Source: an uncultured Planctomycetota bacterium
Lineage (GTDB): Bacteria; Planctomycetota; Planctomycetia; Isosphaerales; Isosphaeraceae
Length of the DNA: 64,000 nt
Reading direction: 5' to 3'
NCBI GenBank assembly: GCA_963737655.1
Contig: CAVTTN010000002.1
Location: 4,864,001 to 4,928,000 of the forward strand
In this document: one piece after another, positions 15,246 to 31,821 of the stretch
Layout of the letters: the number at the start of each line of letters is the position of its first letter
Numbering within the stretch: position 1 is the stretch's first letter
The notes under the pieces: model-generated
Told to the model about the DNA's origin: nothing
Database searches by the model: none
Seen by the model: the letters and a program-made list of their open reading frames with translations, nothing else
Made by a program: the position numbers and the translations under genes

Positions 15246-16412
15246 ATGAGACGCGCCGTGATCGTCGAGGCCGTCCGCACGCCGATCGGGCGGGCCTCGG
15301 CCGACAAGGGATACTTTCGCGACGTCCGCGCCGACGAGCTCTCGGCCGGGCTCGATGAACGCGCTGATCGGGCGCACCGGGATCGACCCGAAGCTGATCG
15401 AGGACGTCCGCTGGGGCTGCGTCCAGCAGCAGGGGGAGCAGGGGTTCGACGTGGCCAGGATCGCCGCGCTGATCGCCGGGCTGCCGGTCGAGGTCGGCGG
15501 CGTGACGATCAACCGCAACTGCGCCAGCAGCCTCCAGGCGATCAACGACTCGGCCATGAGCATCGCCGCCGAGTGCGAAGACGTCCAGATCGCCGGGGGC
15601 GTCGAACACATGGACCACATCCCCATGTCCAAGGATTACAACCCGAGCCGCTCTTGTTCCGGAAGAACAGCGAGGCGATCAACCACATGGGCCTCACCGC
15701 CGAGTACCTGGCGATGAAGTACCGCATCCCCCGGCAGAAGCAGGACGAATTCGCGCTGAGGAGCCACCTCCTTGCGGCGAAGGCCACCGACGCCGGCCTG
15801 TTCCTCAACGAGATCGTGCCGACCTACGGCCGCGACGACGCCGGCCACAAGACGAAGCTGACCACCGACCAGTGCATCCGCCGCGATTCGTCGATCGAGG
15901 CCCTCGCCGCGCTGCCCCCGGCGTTCAACCCGGCCGGAGGCTCGGTCACGGCGGGCAACAGCTCGCCGATCAACGTCGGGGCCGCCGCCCTGCTCGTCAT
16001 GTCCGAGGACAAGGCCAGGGAGCTCGGCCTCGAACCGCTGGCCCGGGTGAGGTCGATGGCGGTGGCGGGCGTCGATCCCTCCGAGATGGGCATCGGCCCC
16101 GTCCCGGCCACCCACAAGGCCCTCAAGCGGGCCGGCCTCTCGCTCGACGACATCGGCTGCATCGAGCTCAACGAGGCGTTCGCGGTCCAGGTCCTCGCGG
16201 TGATGAAGCTGCTCGGCCTCAAGGAGAAGGACGAGCCCAGGATCAACGCCAGAGGGGGCTCGATCGCCATCGGCCACCCCCTGGGAGCCAGCGGAGCCCG
16301 GATCACCACCACGCTCCTCCACCGGATGCGCGACGAAGGCCAATCGCTCGGCCTGGCCACCATGTGCGTCGGCCAGGGGCAGGGCGTGGCGACGATCTTC
16401 GAGCGGGTGTGA
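15246..16412 (+). CDS. 3-ketoacyl-CoA thiolase (FadA-like), two compensating frameshifts (about 15354 and 15648)
   Basis: VRTPIGR; TINRNCASS (catalytic Cys) lies in the shifted frame 15355-15650; ELNEAFA, GGSIAIGHPLGASG, TMCVGQGQG. Confidence 0.9.
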   Translation: MRRAVIVEAVRTPIGRASADKGYFRDVRADELSAGLDERADRAHRDRPEADRGRPLGLRPAAGGAGVRRGQDRRADRRAAGRGRRRDDQPQLRQQPPGDQRLGHEHRRRVRRRPDRRGRRTHGPHPHVQGLQPEPLLFRKNSEAINHMGLTAEYLAMKYRIPRQKQDEFALRSHLLAAKATDAGLFLNEIVPTYGRDDAGHKTKLTTDQCIRRDSSIEALAALPPAFNPAGGSVTAGNSSPINVGAAALLVMSEDKARELGLEPLARVRSMAVAGVDPSEMGIGPVPATHKALKRAGLSLDDIGCIELNEAFAVQVLAVMKLLGLKEKDEPRINARGGSIAIGHPLGASGARITTTLLHRMRDEGQSLGLATMCVGQGQGVATIFERV

Positions 16413-16873: not shown

Positions 16874-17278
16874 GTGTCCACGTCCCGCAGCTCGGTCCGC
16901 TGGAACTCCCGGCTCGTCGGAGCGGCCTTCGCCCTCCTGACGCTGGCGAGCCTCGCGCCCGACGCGGCTCGAGCCGGTTGCGTGCATCCGGCGACCGAGG
17001 GGGCGGACCACCTGGACCTGCTCCGAGCCGCCGGTTCGCTGGGCGATGCGCCCGCGATGCCGAGACCGGACCCCGGGGGATGCACCGGGCCGTATTGCTC
17101 GAGCCGATCCGATCCGCCGCTCGGGCCTTCCGCCGCCTCGTCCCCGCGGGTGAGCCAGTGGGCGGTCCTGGACCCGCCGCCTCCTCGGATCGCCCGGGCT
17201 TCCTTCCCCCGCCGCCGAGATGGCGGCCGGGCGAAGCCGATCCTCGCGGCCGAAGCGATCTTTCATCCTCCGCGATGA
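16874..17278 (+). CDS. Small signal-peptide protein with Cys motifs and C-terminal HPPR (leader / DUF2946-like architecture)
   Basis: Hydrophobic signal ending ARA-GC; CVHP and CTGPYC; ends AIFHPPR-stop; precedes the DUF1559 cluster. Confidence 0.55.
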
Positions 17279-17691: not shown

Positions 17692-18651
17692 ATGATACTT
17701 CGTGAATCGCGGCGCGGTTTCACCTTGATCGAGCTCCTCGTGGTGATCGCGATCATCGGCGTCCTGATCGCCCTGCTGCTGCCGGCCGTCCAGGCGGCTC
17801 GTGAGGCCGCCCGCCGGGCCCAGTGCACCAACAACTTGAAGCAGATCGGCCTGGCGGCGCACAACTATCACGACCGGGTCGGCGCCCTTCCCGGGGCCGA
17901 ACTGGCCCAGGGCGTGACGAGCTTCTCGGCCCTGTCGCACCTGCTCCCCGGCCTGGAGCTGGGGAATCAGTACAACGCCCTGAACTTCTCGCTGCCGAAC
18001 TCGGACCCCTCGAACGCGACCGTGGCGTTCGTGGCGGTCTCGTCGTTCATCTGCCCGTCGGACGTGAACAACTCGGCGCTGGCCTCGATCGGGGCGCAGA
18101 CCAACTACATGGCCGACATGGGGAGCTGGATCGTCTGGATGTCGGCGACCGGGCCGAACGTCGGCCTGATGCCGCCCAACGGCGTGTTCTACGGCAACAG
18201 CGCCACCCGGTTCGCCGACGTGATCGATGGGCTGTCCAACACGGGGTTCTTCAGCGAGCGGATCCTTGCCGACGGCAACAATGCGGTCGTCAGCCCGATC
18301 GCCGACGTGTTCTTCAGCCCGGCGGCGCCGACGACGATCGACGACGCCGTGACGTTGTGCCGGGCGTTGGACGTCAACAACCTCTCCAACCAGTTCCCGC
18401 TGTTCATGGGGGCGCCCTGGGTCAACGGCCAGCACGTGTTCCTCCACGTGACGGGCCCGAACACGCGGTCGTGCGGCTTCTTCGCCGCGCTCCGCGCCGT
18501 GATGCCCGCCAGCAGCCGCCACCCCGGGGGGGTGAACGTGCTGATGGGCGACGGCTCGGTGCGGTTCATCAAGGATGGGATCAGCGTCCCGACGTGGCGG
18601 GCCCTGGGCACCGTCGCCGGGGGCGAGATCGTCAACCAGGGCGAACTTTGA
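17692..18651 (+). CDS. DUF1559 (PulG-like) prepilin-type N-terminal cleavage/methylation protein
   Basis: [48 protein letters not shown]9-DG motif [14 protein letters not shown]. Confidence 0.95.
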
Positions 18652-18669: not shown

Positions 18670-19068
18670 ATGACTCGCGCCCTCCGCACGGCGGTCGCCG
18701 CGACCCTGGCCCTGGCCGCGCTCGTCGCGGCCGGGTGCTCGGAGCGGATCGCCGCCACCCCGCTGGACTCCACCCGGGCGATGGACTCCCTGAAGGCCGC
18801 GCTCGAGGCGTGGAAGAAGGGGGAGCCCGCCGACGCCCTGAAGAGCGGGTCCCCGCCGATCGTCGCCCAGGACCTCGACTGGCAGGGCGGGGCGACCCTC
18901 GTCGATTACGCGATCGACGGCCCGGGGGACAGGGTGGATTCCAACCTGAAGGTCCCGGTGAAGCTGACGCTCAAGGCCAGGTCCAGGTCCGGCAAGGACG
19001 TGACCAAGGCCGTGAAGTACCTCGTGACCACCAGCCCATCCATCACGGTCTTCCGGGCCTTCCCCTGA
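18670..19068 (+). CDS. Hypothetical lipoprotein (DUF1559 partner)
   Basis: Lipobox LVAAG-C; directly follows the DUF1559 gene. Confidence 0.75.
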
Positions 19069-19110: not shown

Positions 19111-20499
19111 ATGAATCCGTCCCGATCCCTCGCCGCCCTGGCCGTGGCCTGCGGGCTGGCCTCTCCGTCGGTCGCCTCGGCCGAGGGCACCCTGCTCGCG
19201 CCGCTCTCGAATGAGGACGCCTGGAAGGCGCTCCCCCCGGCGGAGGCCGGCGCCGGCCTCCCTTTGCCGTCCTGGGCCCGGATGCTCGCCCGGTCCCTGC
19301 CCCGGACCACGGCGGCCCTGCTCCAACTGGACCTGGCGCAGCGATCGAAGAACCCGCTCGACCCGAAGCTCCGCGCGGCGATGCGCCACGTCGCCGCCCG
19401 CGCCAACGGCTCCTCCTATGGCGAGGCCTGCGCCGAGGCCGACGCCCGCCGCGCCGGCCTCGCGGCTTCGGCGATCGCGGCCCTCGCCCGGGGCGACCTC
19501 TCGGGCTTCTCGGCCGAGGACCGGGCCGCCCTGGAGTTCGCCCGCAAGATGACCGTCGAGTCGTCGAAGGTCACCGACGCCGAGTTCGCGGCCCTGGTCC
19601 GGGGGTTCGGCGAGAAGAAGGCCGCCGCGATGGTCTTGACGATGGCCTACGCGAACTTCCAGGACCGCCTCCTGATCGTCCTGGGCGCCCCCGTCGAGGA
19701 GGGCGGGCCGCCGCCCCCGGTCGAGGTGGCATTCCGGCCCGAGGTGCTCGCGTCGCGGAAGGCGCCCGCCTCCCCGCCGACGATCTCCGACCTGCCCCGG
19801 CCCTCGGGCAAGGACGTCGTCGAGGACGACGACGGCTGGGAGGCCGTCTCCTACGCCCGGCTCCAGGAGAAGCTGGAGGAGCAGAGGAGCAAGCCGACCC
19901 GGCTCCGCGTCCCCGCGATCGACGAGGTCAAGTCCGGCCTGCCCCCGGGCGCCTCGATGCAGGGCGAGCGGGTCGTCTGGAGCCTCGTCGCCTTCGGCTA
20001 TTGCCCGGAGCTGGCCGTCCCGTGGGAGGCCGTGATGTGGATCAACGGCGAGGAGAACGGCCGGCGATTCGACCGCGCGTTCGGCCTCGGCCTGTTCTGG
20101 ATCGTCACCCGGACGATCGACTGCCCGTACTGCATGGGGCACGTCGAGATGAACTGGGAGGTCATCGGCATGAAGCCCGAGCAGATCGCCGAGAGGAGCC
20201 GGGCCCTGGCCGGCAAGGATTGGTCGAGCTTCCCGCCGGAGGAGCAGAGGGCGTTCGCCCTGGCCCGCAAGCTCACGGCGACCCCGGCGAAGGTCACCCG
20301 CGACGAGATCGACGGCGCGATCAAGGACTTCGGCCGCGACCCGGCGGTCAGCCTCCTGACCTACGTCTGCCGGTGCAACTACATGGTGCGCGTCTCCAAC
20401 GGCTTCCAGCTCTCGCTGGAGCGGGACAACGTCTTCTTCGACTACTACAAGGTGAAGCCGCCGACTCCGGCCGGGCCGGGCGGCGAATCGCGGCGATGA
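19111..20499 (+). CDS. Exported AhpD / carboxymuconolactone-decarboxylase-like protein (two lobes; CxxC = CPYC)
   Basis: Signal peptide; [47 protein letters not shown]. Confidence 0.8.
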
Positions 20500-20567: not shown

Positions 20568-21785
20568 ATGAAGGCGTTCTCGCGACGACTGGGCTGGGCG
20601 ATCGCGCTGGCGGCGCTCTCGGGGGCGGCGCCGGCCTTCGCCGGCGAAGGACCGACCGCGGACTCGCTCTCCGTGGGCACGGCCAGGGCGCTCGACGCCC
20701 TCTGGCCCGGCCACCCCGAGGCGATCGACATGCTGGCCGACATCCTCATCAAGGGCGAGGAGATGGGGGGGGCCGACGGCTGGTTCCGCAAGGCCCCCTC
20801 GCGGACCCGATTCGACTGGGGCGCGACCCGCGCGGCGCTGGATCGGGACGGCGACGGCTCGGTCACCCGGGCCGAGTTCGGGGGCCCCGACGCCGACTTC
20901 GCCCGGCTCGACCGCGACCGGGACGGCCGGCTCTCGGCGGCCGACTTCGACTTCTCGGCGCGCCCCTCCGGGCCGCCGGCCGGCTCGATCCTCCTGGTCC
21001 GGGCCGACCGCGACGGCGACGGCCGTCTGACCCGCGACGAGCTCGACCGGTTCTTCCGGGACAACGACCGCGAGGGCCTGGGCTTCCTCTCGCTGGCCGA
21101 CCTCCAGGAGGCCCTCTCGACCGCCCCGGGGCCGGGCGCCTCCTCGTCGATCCCGACGCGGTCGGTCCTGCTCAAGAGCTTCTTCCGGGGCGAGCTCGGC
21201 GCCTGGCCGCCCGGCCCCCCGCTGGACGCCCCGGCCCCCGACTTCACCCTCAAGGCGGCCGAGGGGGGCGAGGCCGTCTCGCTGTCGAAGCTCGTGGGCC
21301 CGAAGCCGATCGTCCTGGTCTTCGGCAACTTCACGTGCGGGCCGTTCCGGGGGCAGGCCGGCAACCTCCAGAAGCTCCACGCCCGCTACAAGGACCGGGC
21401 GGAGTTCCTGATGGTCTACGTCCGCGAGCCCCACCCCACCGACGGCTGGAGGATGGAGAATAACGACCGCGTGGGGGTGGCGGTCCGCCAGCCCCGCGAC
21501 GCGTCCGAGCGGCTCGAGGTCGCCCGGTCGTGCGGCCGGACCCTCAAGCTCGGCTTCCCGATGCTCGTGGACACGATGGACGACGCGGTCAACAATGCCT
21601 ACAGCGGCATCCCCAGCCGGCTCTACCTGATCGACCGGGGCGGCAAGATCGCCTTCAAAAATGGCCGGGGGCCGTTCGGATTCCGGCTCGCCGAGCTGGA
21701 GCAATCGCTCCTGCTGCTCCTCCGCCAGGAGGCGACCGCCGCCGGACCTCCGGCCGACGGCGATCGACCGCCCGGCGGGCGATGA
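20568..21785 (+). CDS. Exported EF-hand + iodothyronine-deiodinase-like thioredoxin-fold protein
   Basis: Signal peptide; [83 protein letters not shown]. Confidence 0.85.
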
Positions 21786-21836
21786 GGATCGGATCGCCGT
21801 CCCCTTCCCGACCCCAACCCCTCGCGGACCCCCCTC

Positions 21837-24378
21837 ATGATGCATCCCCGATGGTCCCTCGCCGGCCTCCGCCTCGGGCTCGCCCTCCTGCTGGTCGCGC
21901 CCTGGACCTGGGCCGGGCCAGGATCTGAGGACCTCGCCGATCCGGAAGGCCGAGACGCCCGCCCAGGCGGCCCGCAGGGCGCTGGACGAGTCCTGGCCCG
22001 ACCACCCCGAATGGCTCGACCAGTACACCGACATCCTCAACGACGCCGGCAGCGGCCCCAACGACGGCTGGTTCCGCCGGGCCCGGTCGCAGACCCGGTT
22101 CGGCTGGGGCGCCGTCGCCGGCCGGCTCGACGGCGACCACGATGGCGCGATCTCCCGCAAGGAATTCCCGGGCACCGACCGCGACTTCGCCCGGCTCGAT
22201 CGCGACCGCGACGGGGCCTTGACCCGCGCCGACTTCGACTTCCCGGCCAACAGCGCCCTGAACGCATCGCCGGGGTCGCTCCTGATGTACGTCCTGGACG
22301 ACGACGGCAACGGCAAGGTCACCCGCGAGGAGATGGAGGCGTTCTTCAAGAAGGCCGACGGCGGCGACCTCGGCTTCCTCTCGCTGAACGACCTCCAGGA
22401 GAACTTCACCACCCGCCCGAAGACATCGGGCCTGCCCGACCCGGGCCCCCCGTCGAAGGAGACCCTCATCCGGGGGCTGTTCCGCCGGGAGATCGGCTCC
22501 CTCGAACCCGGCCCGTCGCTCGACCAGAAGGCGCCGGACTTCACCCTCAAGACCGTCGACGGCAAGGGGGAAATCACCCTGTCGAAGCTGGTGGGGCCGA
22601 AGCCGGTGGTCCTGGTCTTCGGCAACTTCACGTGCGGGCCGTTCCGCAGCCAGGCCGGGAACGTGGAGAAGCTCTACCAGCTCTACAAGGACCGGGCGGA
22701 GTTCGTGATGGTCTACGTCCGCGAGGCCCACCCCACCGACGGCTGGAGGATGGACAGCAACGACGCGGTGGGGATCACCACCGCCCAGCCGAGGACGTAC
22801 GAGGAGCGGGTGGCGCTGGCCCGGACCTGCGGCAAGAGGCTCTCGCTCGGGTTCCCGATGCTCGTCGATGGGATCGACGACCCGGTGGGCAACGCCTACA
22901 GCGGGATGCCCAGCCGGCTCTACCTGATCGACCGCGACGGCAAGGTGGCCTACAAGAGCGGCCGGGGCCCCTACGGCTTCCTGCCGGCCGAGCTGGAGCA
23001 TTCGCTGGCCCTCCTGCTCCAGCCGTCGGCCGAGCCCTCGGGCCATGCCGAGGCTCCCGGGCCGACCCCCCCCGTCCAGCTCGCCCGTCCGGTCGAAGGG
23101 CCCGGCCCGGTGAAGCTCCTGAGCAGCGAGGAGGCCTGGAGGCGCCTGCCCCGGGTCGTCGAGGGCGGCCATCCTCCGCTGCCCAACTGGGCCCGGGCCA
23201 CGGCCCACGCCCTGCCCCAGACCACCGCGGCGATGCTGGAGCTGGACCGGCTCCATCGGACCGAGAGCCCGCTCGGCCCGGCCCTCCGCGGCAAGATGCG
23301 CTGGGTCGCGGCCGACACCAACCGCTGCGCCTACGGCCGGGCCACGGCCGAGGCCGACCTCCTCCGCGCCGGGATCGACCGGGCCGAGATCGACGCCCTG
23401 AAGGCGGGCCCCCGGCTCTGGCCGGAGGCCGAGCGAACGGCCCTGGAGTTCGCCTCGAGGATGAGCCGCGACGCCTCCGAGGTCACCGATGGCCAGGTCG
23501 CCGCCCTGATCCGCGCCCACGGCGAGGAGAAGGTCGTGGCGATGGTCCTCCTCCTGGCCGCCGCCAACTTCCAGGACCGCCTGGTCATGGGCCTGGGGAC
23601 CCCTCTGGAAACGGACGGGCCGATGGCGCCGGTCGCGGTCCGATTCGCCAAGGACGGCCCCCCGCCGCTCGTCCCGAACCGAGGCAAGCCCGAAGACTGG
23701 CGGGGCCCGCCCGTCCCCGACCGCGTGGACGATCCCGAATGGGCCGTCCTGGACTTCGACGACCTCCGCAAGGGCCTGGACTCGCAGAAGAACAACGCCG
23801 GGCGGATCCGCGTGCCCTCGCCCGAGGAGGCCGTCGCCCACCTCCCGGCCGACTATCCGAAGCCGAAGTCGCCGATCCGGATCAAGTGGAGCCTGGTCGT
23901 CTTCGGCTACCAGCCGAGGCTGGCGGCGGCGTGGTCGTCCGTCATGAGGGCCTTCGACTCCGATGCCCACCTCGACGACGTCTTCGGCGAGAGCCTCTTC
24001 TGGGTCGTCACGAAGTCCATCCACTGCTTCTACTGAATGGGCCACTCCGAGATGGTGCTCGCGGTCGCGGGCCTGGACGCGGAAGCCCTGGACAAACGGA
24101 CCCGGACCCTCGCCTCGGGCGACTGGTCCACCCTGCCGCCTCGCGATCGCGCCGCCTTCTTCTTCGCGAAGACGCTGGCGCAGGCGCCCTGGGAGATCCG
24201 CGACGCCGATCGGCAACTCCTGATCGAACACTTCGGCCCGGAGAGGGCCGTCGACGTGATCTGGCAGTCGAGCTGGTGCAACTACATGACCCGGGTCGCC
24301 GACGCGTTCCAGCTCCCCCTGGAGCGAGAGAACGTGTTCGCCCCCCCACCGGCGCCCAACCCAGGGGCCAAGCCCTGA
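21837..24378 (+). CDS. Exported EF-hand + deiodinase-like + AhpD-like fusion, probable selenoprotein (Sec at TGA 24034-24036; frameshift near 21910)
   Basis: Signal peptide from 21837; homology to both upstream genes; in-frame TGA aligns to the second Cys of the paralog CxxC and homology continues in frame to 24378. Confidence 0.75.
24054..24074 (+). promoter_or_regulatory. Candidate bacterial SECIS hairpin
   Basis: GG-[bulged T]-GCTCGC-loop GGTC-GCGGGC-CT; the loop starts 27 nt after the TGA. Confidence 0.6.
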
Positions 24379-24555: not shown

Positions 24556-25704
24556 ATGAGGCGATCCGTTGCGGGGAAGCTCCCCTGGGGTTTGCTGGGC
24601 TCCGCCGTCCTGATCGTCCTGATCGAGCGAGGGTTCGAGCGACATCGGCTCTTGCTGTCCGACGCCGGCTCGGTGAACTGGCGATCCTCGGCGTATGCGA
24701 CGGGCCATCAGGCGGTCCGCGCCGAGGTCCTCGCGTTCGGCGACAGCTTGACGAAATTCGGGGTCCAGCCTCGGGTGATCGAGGCGGAGACCGGCCTGTC
24801 GGCCTACAACCTCGCCGGGGTCGGGGCGCCTCCGGCGTTCTCGTATTTCCTGCTCGGCCGGGCGATCCGGGCCGGCGCCCGGCCGAAGCTGATAGTCCTG
24901 AACGTCGCGCCCCATCACACCTATTCCTCGCCCTCCTCGCACATCCGGCCGTTCAGCGAGTTCCTCGCGATCTCCGAGGCCCTGGATTACTCGTGGAACG
25001 CCCGCGATCCCTCGCTGTTCCTCGGCCTGATGGTCCCTCGATTCCTCCCGTCCGCGCGGTCCCGCCTGGAGATCCGCAACACCCTCAGGGAGGCGCTCGC
25101 GGGCGACGGACCGCCTCGCCTGCCGGTCCCCGAGGCGATGCTCCGCAACTGGAACGCCAACCTCGGCGCGTTCGCGATGCCGCCGACGCCCCATTCGCCC
25201 GGGGATGCCCGCGCCGCCATGCTCGGGCTCCTGCCCAGCCCCCTCGTCGCCTGGACGGGCGACCGGACCTTCCAGGGCGACTACCTCGATCGGTTCCTCG
25301 ACCTGGCCGAGTCCCACGGCATCCCGGTCTTCCTGGTCGTCCCGCCGATGCACCCCGACTACGAGGCAAGAGAGATCGCGCTGGGCAACCCGCCGGTCCT
25401 GGACGCGTTCCTCCGGATGACCCGGGATCGCCACCCCCGGATCACGATCCTCGACGGCCGTCGCAAGGGTTACGACGCCTCGCTCTTCTGCGAGGACATC
25501 GTCCACCTGAACGTGCGAGGCGCCTCGGCCTTCACCCGCGACGTCTCCGGCGCCATCTCGCGTTGGAGAGCCGGCGGCGTGAAGCCCGGCACCACCGTCG
25601 CCTTGCCTGCGTATCGGGACGGCCGCCCGCAACCCGGGATCGAGAGTTTCCCCGAATCGCTCGCGGCGATTTCCGGCAGGGTTAGGAAAACGCCTCGTCG
25701 ATGA
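24556..25704 (+). CDS. Membrane-anchored SGNH/GDSL-like protein (DUF1574-like)
   Basis: N-terminal TM; VLAFGDS, AYNLAG, DIVHLN (DxxH). Confidence 0.65.
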   Translation: MRRSVAGKLPWGLLGSAVLIVLIERGFERHRLLLSDAGSVNWRSSAYATGHQAVRAEVLAFGDSLTKFGVQPRVIEAETGLSAYNLAGVGAPPAFSYFLLGRAIRAGARPKLIVLNVAPHHTYSSPSSHIRPFSEFLAISEALDYSWNARDPSLFLGLMVPRFLPSARSRLEIRNTLREALAGDGPPRLPVPEAMLRNWNANLGAFAMPPTPHSPGDARAAMLGLLPSPLVAWTGDRTFQGDYLDRFLDLAESHGIPVFLVVPPMHPDYEAREIALGNPPVLDAFLRMTRDRHPRITILDGRRKGYDASLFCEDIVHLNVRGASAFTRDVSGAISRWRAGGVKPGTTVALPAYRDGRPQPGIESFPESLAAISGRVRKTPRR

Positions 25705-29410: not shown

Positions 29411-30124
29411 TGTTTTCTGATTTGAGAATCCGTTCGGTTTTGACCCGCAACGATCGACTTATAAGAGACTTGTGTCGATCGAATTTTTGAGCTTCACCGC
29501 CGACTTTTGCCGGAAATGGTGGATCGCTCGGGGGTGCGCGTGAGGGGTCGTTCGGAAGGGGCGGTGGGCGTGGTGGCGGGATTGGGTGATCGGGGGTGGG
29601 GGCGGCCCTCGATGATGGGATCACGGGGGCGGCGGCGTTGGGGCTCGGGTCCGATTTGCGAGGGGGAGGGTGGCCGTGATCGATGGGGATGGATCGGGTC
29701 GGGATGTCGGCTCGGGGGCCGGGGCGACATCCTCTTGGGGCCGGGCCAGTCCCGGAACCATTCGCGATATTTTATAATCTCGATGTGATTCGGGCCATTC
29801 GGATCAAGGACGTCGAGAGAGAACTTTTCCATGATTGCTTGAAGGATCTCACGACCTTCGACTTATTTGGCCCGGATTGCCGGATTGCCGCGGTCTTCCG
29901 AAATCGTCCCTTTCTTGTGAGGCGTGAGGGTCCTGGCTTTCCCAAGGCGAGCCGCGGGCGTCCTTTGCGACGATTTCTCGATCCGGGAGGGGTCTCGGGG
30001 TCCGTCTGGTGTTGGCAGTGGCTGGACGGCGACGGTCCGATCGGTTGGAATGAGGCCGCGATCGACCCGGGTTCGTGGCGAACGAGCGGGGCGGGGTCTT
30101 GCCGATCCGCCGGGAGAGGGTGAC

Positions 30125-31821
30125 GTGGCCTCCGAGAACCTTCCCGCCCTCTTCCGGGCGACCTGCGATCGCCTCGGCCCTCGGGCGGCGGTTCGGTTCC
30201 GGCGCGATGGCCTGTATCGTGACCTTTCCTGGGACGATTACCGCCGACGGGTGGATGAGGCGGCGGCGGGCCTGGTGGCCCTGGGGGTGAAGCCCGGGGA
30301 TCGGGTGGCGATCCTTTCGGAGAACCGGGTCGAGTGGCTGGAGGCCGATCTGGCGGTGCTCTCGGCCGGGGCGGTGGGCGTCCCCTTGCATGCCCCGCTG
30401 TCCGCCGGGCAGGTCGCCTATCAGGTGGCCCATAGCGGGGCCGTCGGGGCGATCGTGAGCGGGCCGGGTCAGGCGGCGAAGGTCCTGGAGGCGAGGGATC
30501 AGGCCCCGGAGCTCCGCTGGATCGTCGCGTTCGACGCGATCGGGGCGGGCGATCCGGGGATTCGCGCCCTTTCGTGGCTCGGATTGGGCGGCGAAGGCCG
30601 GCGGGCGGGGCCGGCGGCGAGGTTGGACGTGGATCGGAGGATCTCGGCGCTCTCTCGCGGCGACCTGGCCTCGATCCTCTATACGAGCGGCACCACCGGC
30701 CCTCCCAAGGGCGTGATGCTGTCTCATGGGAACTTCCTCTCGAACGCCGAGACCACGGCGGTCATCTCCGGGTCGGTGCCGACCGACGTGGTGTTGAGCT
30801 GGCTGCCCTATAGCCATGTTTATGCCCGCACGTGCGACCTCTACGTGTTCCTGGTGGATGGTGCCACGCTGGCCCTGGCCGAGTCGGTCGATGCCCTGAT
30901 GGTCCATCTGGCCGAGGTCCAGCCGTCGTGCATGTCGTCGGTGCCGAGGTTCTATGAGAAGGTCTGGGGCAACCTCCAGGGGGTCCCCGAGGCGGCCCGG
31001 CCGAGGGCGCTTTGGGGGATTTTCGGGCCGAATGTCCGCCATTTCTCCTCGGGGGCGCCCCGTTGCCGAGGCCGGTGGCCGAGGGGTTCCACGCCTGCGG
31101 GATGACCTTGATGGAAGGCTACGGGATGACCGAGTCGTCGCCCGTGATCAGCTTCAACACGCCGGGGGCCGTGAAGGTGGGCTCGGTCGGCCGGCCGATC
31201 CCGGGCGTGGAGGTCCGGATCGCCGAGGATGGCGAGATCCTCACCCGGGGGCCTCACGTGATGATGGGTTACTGGCGAGATCCCGACGCCACGGCGAGGA
31301 CGATCGTCGACGGCTGGCTGCACACCGGGGACGTGGGCCATCTGGATCCCGACGGCTACCTGTTCATCACCGATCGCAAGAAGGACATCCTCATCACCTC
31401 GGGCGGCAAGAACGTCGCCCCGAGCGAGCTGGAACGGCTGATCGTGGCCGATCCGACGTTCGATCAGGCGGTGGTCTTCGGGGACGGCCGGCCGTTCGTC
31501 GGGGCGCTGGTCGTGCCGACGGCCGAGGCGATGGAGGCCGAAGCGGCCCGCCTCGGCGCCCCCCTCGATCGTGACGGCGAATTCCTCGCCCCGGGGCCGA
31601 TCGTCGATGCCTTCTTCGCCCGGGTCTCGACGGCGATGCAGGCCGTGAGCGGGCCGGAGCGGGTGAAGGCGATCCTCGTCCTCGGGCGGCCCCTGAGCGT
31701 CGATCGCGAGGAGGTCACGGCCACGCTCAAGGTCCGCCGGCGGCACGTCCTGGCCGAATTCGCCGACCGGATCGAGGCGCTTTACCAGAGCAAGGCCGCC
31801 TCTGCGGCCCTGGACGTCTAG
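30125..31821 (+). CDS. Long-chain fatty acid-CoA ligase (frameshift in the G run near 31052)
   Basis: YTSGTTGPPKGVMLSHGN; EGYGMTESSP; WLHTGDVG; DRKKDILITSGGKNVAP. Confidence 0.9.

Follow-up and report, generated by a model that had tools for sequence, protein, structure and literature searches.

What does a deiodinase-like domain do in a bacterium when it occurs twice in one locus, each time behind EF-hands and beside proteins of the AhpD fold? This question is raised by a stretch of 64,000 nt from an uncultured planctomycete of the family Isosphaeraceae (CAVTTN010000002.1, positions 4,864,001-4,928,000, forward strand; hereafter the window, in which the coordinates of Table 1 are counted). 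Two genes of this window, here termed gene A and gene B, belong to the EF-hand deiodinase-like proteins of planctomycetes (NF038285), and the evidence set out below points to a deiodinase scaffold with a two-cysteine arrangement of its own.

Genes A and B belong to a known deiodinase-like family

The NF038285 model ('deiodinase family protein'; deiodinase_rel, hypothetical equivalog) matched gene A with 450.7 bits (E 4e-135) and gene B with 487.2 bits (E 3e-146), about twice the cut-off of 250. Both proteins cover the whole model including the EF-hands, from position 4 (A) or 7 (B) to 345 or 346 of 347, and gene B additionally carries a tandem AhpD module with a CxxU motif. PF00837 (T4_deiodinase, gathering cut-off 27) scored 98.2 bits for gene A (E 5.8e-28) and 90.6 bits for gene B (E 1.2e-25), which bears out the deiodinase-like assignment made in a first-pass annotation of the window from the sequence alone. 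That annotation had read 20568..23030 as two deiodinase-like domains fused to EF-hands. The architecture holds and the layout had to be corrected: a single two-domain protein was rejected, as the domains sit in two separate genes, the second of which runs past 23030 into the AhpD module. The family is already catalogued and common. NF038285 is matched in 90 of the 201 class genomes and in 44 of the 48 host-family genomes sampled; across the phylum, 99 of 301 sampled genomes have a PF00837 match. Genes A and B are further members of this known, uncharacterised family.

The motifs P(I/V)... and MVYVRE(P/A)HPTDGW are present in both copies. The D..D....AYSG motif is likewise present, except that five residues and not four separate the second D from AYSG. 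Each deiodinase-like domain is preceded by three DxDxDG/DxDxNG loops, as had been noticed before, and by a degenerate fourth. Pfam EF-hand models scored above cut-off in both regions, and helices flanking the loops are present in the predicted model. A lanmodulin-type lanthanide binder was considered and rejected, since the corresponding model reached only 17 of 135 bits.

Among solved structures, the top sequence matches were the mouse iodothyronine deiodinases Dio3 (E 2e-22) and Dio2 (E 5e-19). An AlphaFold2 model of the gene A core (74-row alignment; predicted local distance difference test score, pLDDT, 88.9; predicted template modelling score, pTM, 0.90) superimposed best on Dio2 (9H48; Z 18.2, root-mean-square deviation (rmsd) 2.5, 169 aligned residues) and Dio3 (4TR3; Z 17.2). 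Both outrank all peroxiredoxin and thioredoxin chains, of which the next folds, the 1-Cys peroxiredoxin AhpE, ResA and BCP, reached Z values of at most 15.4. A generic AhpC/TSA fold, named beforehand as the outcome that would speak against a deiodinase-like domain, was rejected: Dio2 and Dio3 are the best matches in sequence and in structure, and the residues of the deiodinase loop are kept.

The active site departs from that of animal deiodinases

To compare the active sites we used Dio3 numbering derived from a sequence alignment and residue roles taken from PMC11592359, PMC7506546 and PMC9141512 (here as below, papers are cited for individual passages). Conservation was tallied in 84 copies with Cys at the catalytic position (Cys-type), 18 EF-hand copies with selenocysteine (Sec-type) and 28 other copies of the phylum. 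These were selected by pattern and required to have at least 110 residues after the catalytic site; truncated or frameshifted copies were dropped.

In both genes of the window the catalytic position is Cys, encoded by TGC, as previously annotated. Around it, all 84 Cys-type copies retain Thr169 and, in the deiodinase loop, Tyr197, Glu200, His202 and Trp207; Arg225 is retained in 83/84 and Arg275 in 82/84. Other positions have changed. Ser167, three residues before the catalytic position, is Asn in 84/84 Cys-type copies and Ser in all 46 Sec forms, under a selection pattern that admits only these two residues. His219 is replaced by Pro in 84/84 Cys-type copies, Phe258 by Pro in 130/130 parsed bacterial copies, and Tyr257 mostly by Met in the Cys type, while the Glu259 position holds A, S or G in the Cys type and is mostly acidic in the Sec forms. 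Of the recycling cysteines, both the proximal Cys168 of Dio1 and Dio3 and the distal Cys239 are missing, with F at 168 and F, M or I at 239. Instead, a Cys lies on helix aD (residues 318-326) in 84/84 Cys-type, 18/18 Sec-type EF-hand and 26/28 other phylum copies. The Pro at position 258 corresponds to the cis-Pro of the thioredoxin family, and a hydroxyl three residues before the catalytic Cys belongs to the peroxiredoxin active site.

Of the deiodinase network Ser167-Thr169-Tyr197-Glu200-His202-His219 (PMC11592359, PMC7506546), the family thus retains Thr169, Tyr197, Glu200 and His202, with Ser167 and His219 replaced. In Dio3, Ser167Ala cuts activity by more than 90%, and Phe258Pro also lowers it (PMC7506546). 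Judged by these aligned residues, A and B fall outside the iodothyronine deiodinases Dio1-3, because Ser167, His219 and Phe258 are changed, the recycling cysteines are missing and a helix-aD Cys of their own is present. They share with Dio1-3 (4TR3, 9H48) the thioredoxin/peroxiredoxin fold with the deiodinase insertion and the seven kept residues named above, but differ in that Sec is replaced by Cys, Ser167 by Asn and both His219 and Phe258 by Pro, and in that a predicted signal peptide and EF-hands take the place of the membrane anchor.

AhpD-fold proteins are linked and repeatedly fused to the family

Upstream of gene A lies a stand-alone gene for a tandem AhpD protein, whose predicted structure (pLDDT 93.0) contains two AhpD repeats. 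Its best structural match was Sestrin2 (Z 26.6, rmsd 3.4, 297 aligned residues), followed by single AhpD-like peroxidases and the debrominase Bmp8 (Z 13-16). The N-terminal repeat has no cysteine pair and the C-terminal repeat carries the CxxC/U-x-x-H site; tandem AhpD proteins with a Cys-less N-terminal repeat have been described in other bacteria (PMC11429811), and the C-terminal position of the active repeat distinguishes the planctomycete proteins from Sestrin2. Over the catalytic repeat, Bmp8 matched with E 1.9e-6 and, in structure, with Z 14.3 (rmsd 2.8, 158 aligned), and peroxidase-type AhpD proteins scored equal or higher. The AhpD module of gene B, like the stand-alone protein, remained below all NCBIfam cut-offs, including those of the named families of AhpD-like selenoproteins (TIGR01926, the best, 40 of 81.8 bits; NF041238, 27 of 175; NF053654, 20-31 of 310).

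Linkage was counted in the best 80 of 189 related loci, which are relatives and not independent samples. A same-strand AhpD-type gene lies within 6 kb in 44/80 of them (27/44 among the loci with at least 12 kb of sequence), compared to 0.5% of random 12-kb windows of this genome. Same-strand neighbours of the DUF1559 type occur in 45/80 loci, against a background of 6.5%, and the lipoprotein in 43/80. The cassettes contain 0-4 AhpD paralogues of several subtypes in varying order, and many loci consist of DUF1559, lipoprotein and deiodinase-like gene only. Full fusions of deiodinase and AhpD in one reading frame were detected in 6/80 related loci and in 11 of the best 150 library representatives, nine of them deiodinase-first and two AhpD-first, one with a different AhpD subtype. 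Both orders and the differing subtype point to repeated fusion. A further library protein (P0006) carries the EF-hand deiodinase module behind an unrelated domain of ~470 aa that matches no NCBIfam family.

A probable selenocysteine in gene B and Sec forms across the family

The AhpD module of gene B contains an in-frame TGA, which aligns with a Cys of its homologues; among the 80 related loci, the codon is TGA in 14 copies and Cys in 29. The 14-nt hairpin core following it is invariant in 15/15 TGA forms and found in 0/30 Cys forms, the TGA forms being kin and not independent. Folding of the whole 67-nt region after the gene B UGA was no better than that of shuffled sequences (z -0.36), so that only the comparative test is informative. 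Furthermore, selA, selB and a Sec-containing selD scored above cut-offs in this genome, and selD has a similar hairpin after its own TGA. Since the hairpin goes with the TGA forms and not with the Cys forms, and selA, selB and selD are present, the TGA of gene B is very probably a Sec codon.

In this assembly, which is 87.7% complete, tRNA-Sec was not found by Rfam, ARAGORN, a pattern search or BLAST with the genes of four relatives. ARAGORN at low threshold returned noise only, and tRNA-Sec was also absent at C2:5113400-5114765, the region syntenic to the gene beside tRNA-Sec in two relatives. Four of five relatives tested do have it, with at least 69 bits. Lys(TTT) and Val(GAC) are missing from the tRNA list of this incomplete assembly as well, and Met(CAT) appears there only once.

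In the deiodinase-like family at large, Sec is the prevalent form: an in-frame TGA was present in 122/133 phylum-wide PF00837 matches, and it occupied the deiodinase catalytic site in 28 of 29 parsed loci (30 fetched). Within the EF-hand family, TGA was found in 19 of 100 above-cut-off matches. A hairpin stands behind the catalytic codon in 16/18 Sec copies and 2/84 Cys copies of this family. Gene callers cut the Sec forms short: of the best 150 library representatives, 46 stop directly in front of the catalytic codon. A midpoint-rooted tree was computed from 82 domains, including a subset of the Cys loci, after masking of the catalytic column. In it the Cys forms fall into a single group (82/81, not starred) that lies among the Sec forms of the EF-hand clade (100/95*). 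This suggests, without proving it, a single Sec-to-Cys change accompanied by the change of Ser to Asn, and we regard the Cys copies as a probably derived branch, independent of selenium, within a family of selenoproteins.

These data also put into context the earlier statement that the Sec of this locus sits in the AhpD module instead of the deiodinase module. At this locus the only Sec-type TGA is indeed that of AhpD, yet this amounts to a loss in one module and not to a swap, because relatives have Sec in the deiodinase domain or in both modules. Relocation of Sec between modules was rejected, given that single-frame fusions with TGA in both the deiodinase and the AhpD module make up 4 of the 17 Sec-type loci fetched.

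Several observations on Sec-type relatives stand by themselves. The Sec-type EF-hand deiodinase genes (loci L121-L137) have their own hairpin resembling a selenocysteine insertion sequence (SECIS) ~11-27 nt after the UGA, with stem changes that compensate each other from copy to copy. In locus L130, three such genes follow each other in one DUF1559 cassette. A second AhpD subtype, with an N-terminal active repeat (NxCxYCxGHQ), has a TGA form in one locus (L055).

A proposed redox couple and its alternatives

Membership in the family, the match in fold, the conserved motifs and the linkage and fusion of the genes are direct observations. We favour, at about even probability, a reading in which A and B would be exported peroxiredoxin-like thiol reductases that are re-reduced by the neighbouring or fused tandem AhpD. 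In the pocket beneath the deiodinase loop, the Cys257 thiolate of gene A would attack a small oxidant, for which an organic peroxide or an oxidised thiol of the envelope is the most likely candidate. Cys322 on helix aD may then resolve the oxidised Cys257 to a disulfide, which the CxxC/CxxU-x-x-H site of AhpD would reduce, as AhpD does for AhpC in mycobacteria. The EF-hands probably bind Ca2+ and may stabilise the protein, whose export is itself a prediction.

Several lines of evidence support this redox couple: the helix-aD Cys is conserved, the next-best folds are AhpE and ResA/BCP, and AhpD is linked and repeatedly fused to the family. AhpD reduces the peroxiredoxin AhpC in Mycobacterium tuberculosis (PMC11429811), and the 2005 description of bacterial deiodinase-like proteins proposed a redox role (PMC1088965). 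The invariant Pro at position 258 is, moreover, a change that lowers Dio3 activity. Other points weigh against the proposal. In the literature searched we found no activity measurement for any family member. As Asn replaces Ser at the peroxiredoxin hydroxyl position in 84/84 Cys-type copies, ordinary peroxidase activity is not assured. No AhpD gene is present in the DNA examined of 36 of the 80 loci, which are not independent, and the strict conservation of the deiodinase loop suggests a specific ligand over a generic peroxide.

In a rival reading, the locus encodes an exported system for reductive dehalogenation. The deiodinase-like domain would remove iodine or bromine from halo-aromatics through halogen bonding to Cys or Sec, with the AhpD-fold protein acting as its recycling partner or as a Bmp8-like debrominase in its own right. 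Dio2 and Dio3 are the closest solved relatives, the positions of Thr169, Tyr197, Glu200, His202, Trp207 and Arg225 are kept in 83-84 of 84 copies and Arg275 in 82, and the AhpD profile matches Bmp8, which removes bromine through cysteine oxidation (PMC5577590). However, five deiodinase residues (Ser167, His219, Tyr257, Phe258, Glu259) are replaced, the first of them at a site where Ala cuts Dio3 activity by more than 90% (PMC7506546), and neither Cys168 nor Cys239 is there. Bmp8 is not set apart from the peroxidase-type AhpD proteins, and the presence of the family in 44 of 48 sampled host-family genomes is more easily reconciled with a general function than with a niche substrate. We consider dehalogenation rather unlikely. 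In another reading, the deiodinase-like and AhpD proteins form no redox couple and would work side by side in one DUF1559-lipoprotein surface cassette, each as a redox enzyme with its own substrate or a thiophilic metal. This seems quite unlikely to us. The shifting number, subtype and order of AhpD paralogues and the many loci without AhpD agree with it, as does the fact that Sestrin2 and AhpD are alkyl-hydroperoxide reductases alone (PMC4674687), but fusion in both orders and the double-Sec fusions fit a tight functional link better.

A different kind of doubt concerns gene B, whose predicted signal peptide is in another frame than its body, with a frameshift near 21935-21950. If the frameshift were real and the UGA undecoded since tRNA-Sec was lost, gene B would be decaying, and only gene A and the Cys-containing AhpD would work. 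The failure to find tRNA-Sec and a third cassette copy with internal deletions elsewhere in the genome are in line with decay. On the other hand, the thiolase (15246-16412) and acyl-CoA ligase (29924-31821) genes of the window are also split across frames, which makes an assembly indel error the more likely cause of the frameshift. Moreover, selA, selB and Sec-containing selD are above cut-offs and the SECIS core is intact, and at 87.7% completeness the Lys(TTT) and Val(GAC) tRNAs are missing as well. Decay of gene B is, in our view, very doubtful.

Organisation of the locus

The features are compiled in Table 1; signal peptides were assigned by eye from the sequence, with no predictor. Gene B starts at ATG 21837 or 21840 and its stop codon is at 24376-24378. 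The small lipoprotein had no Pfam or NCBIfam match, and its closest Atlas clusters are without a name. DUF1559, a large paralogue family of unknown function (PMC10632474), occurs at 45 places in this genome. The DUF1574 gene downstream (24556-25704) is linked in 0/80 related loci and lies outside the cassette.

A second copy of the cassette lies at C2:~5981000-5984020 of the same genome, with the upstream ORF, a frameshifted DUF1559 gene and the lipoprotein. It ends in a hybrid ORF, in which the N-terminal ~105 aa of AhpD are followed by a deiodinase domain with a deletion in the loop, and looks like a decayed paralogue.

Table 1. Features of the locus, by position in the window (ORF, open reading frame)
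Feature	Position	Strand	Remarks
Small upstream ORF	16874..17278	+	kept in 11/80 related loci
DUF1559 prepilin-type protein (H-X9-DG-CTERM)	17692..18651	+	Pfam/NCBIfam matches
Small predicted lipoprotein of no known family	18670..19068	+	DUF1559 partner
Stand-alone tandem AhpD, predicted exported	19111..20499	+	degenerate N-terminal repeat; CPYCMGH in C-terminal repeat; Sestrin-like architecture
Gene A (405 aa): predicted signal peptide, EF-hand domain, deiodinase-like domain	20568..21785	+	NF038285 member
Gene A, three EF-hand loops (D92, D115, D147)	20841..21041	+	Pfam EF-hand models
Gene A, catalytic-position Cys257 (TGC)	21336..21338	+	Dio3 Sec170 position
Gene A, second Cys, Cys322, on helix aD	21531..21533	+	candidate resolving Cys
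Gene B: predicted signal peptide, EF-hands, deiodinase-like domain, tandem AhpD module with in-frame TGA	~21837..24378	+	
Gene B, catalytic-position Cys (TGC)	22633..22635	+	helix-aD Cys at 22828
Gene B, CFY-TGA, CxxU motif of C-terminal AhpD repeat, then MGH	24025..24036 (through MGH 24045)	+	
Gene B, predicted SECIS apical hairpin	24057..24072	+	6-bp stem, GGUC loop; 21-36 nt after UGA

Relation to known systems and significance

Bacterial deiodinase-like proteins with Sec and with Cys were reported in 2005 (PMC1088965) and have been tabulated in reviews (PMC13188914, PMC9312934). These reports concern the same PF00837 domain, but their relevant passages do not treat EF-hands, export, coupling to AhpD or a DUF1559 cassette, and 'EF-hand' does not occur in the two reviews. 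Our literature search, which covered few subscription papers and no supplements, yielded only the 2005 report and surveys or reviews for this family; a study devoted to the EF-hand form or to its link with AhpD was not among the results. Mycobacterial AhpC/AhpD, Sestrin2-like proteins and Bmp8 resemble the present locus in that an AhpD-fold protein with CxxC-x-x-H stands beside a peroxiredoxin-like enzyme; it differs from the mycobacterial pair in that AhpD is predicted to be exported, often contains Sec and is paired with a deiodinase-fold enzyme, not AhpC.

It is also conceivable, although unlikely, that the locus represents an undescribed exported dehalogenation cassette, in which two unrelated folds with dehalogenase precedent, that of a thyroid-deiodinase-like enzyme and that of a Bmp8/Sestrin-like tandem AhpD, repeatedly fused and present in Sec and Cys versions, are placed under a DUF1559-lipoprotein surface module. 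If true, animal deiodinases would have been recruited from this bacterial chemistry. The substrate of the bacterial deiodinase-like proteins, a standing question since 2005, and the physiological reductant of the animal deiodinases, likewise a standing question, are what the family may help to approach: with Cys-type copies that can be expressed without selenium machinery, an AhpD reductant nominated by genetic linkage and a candidate resolving Cys, the substrate question becomes directly testable.

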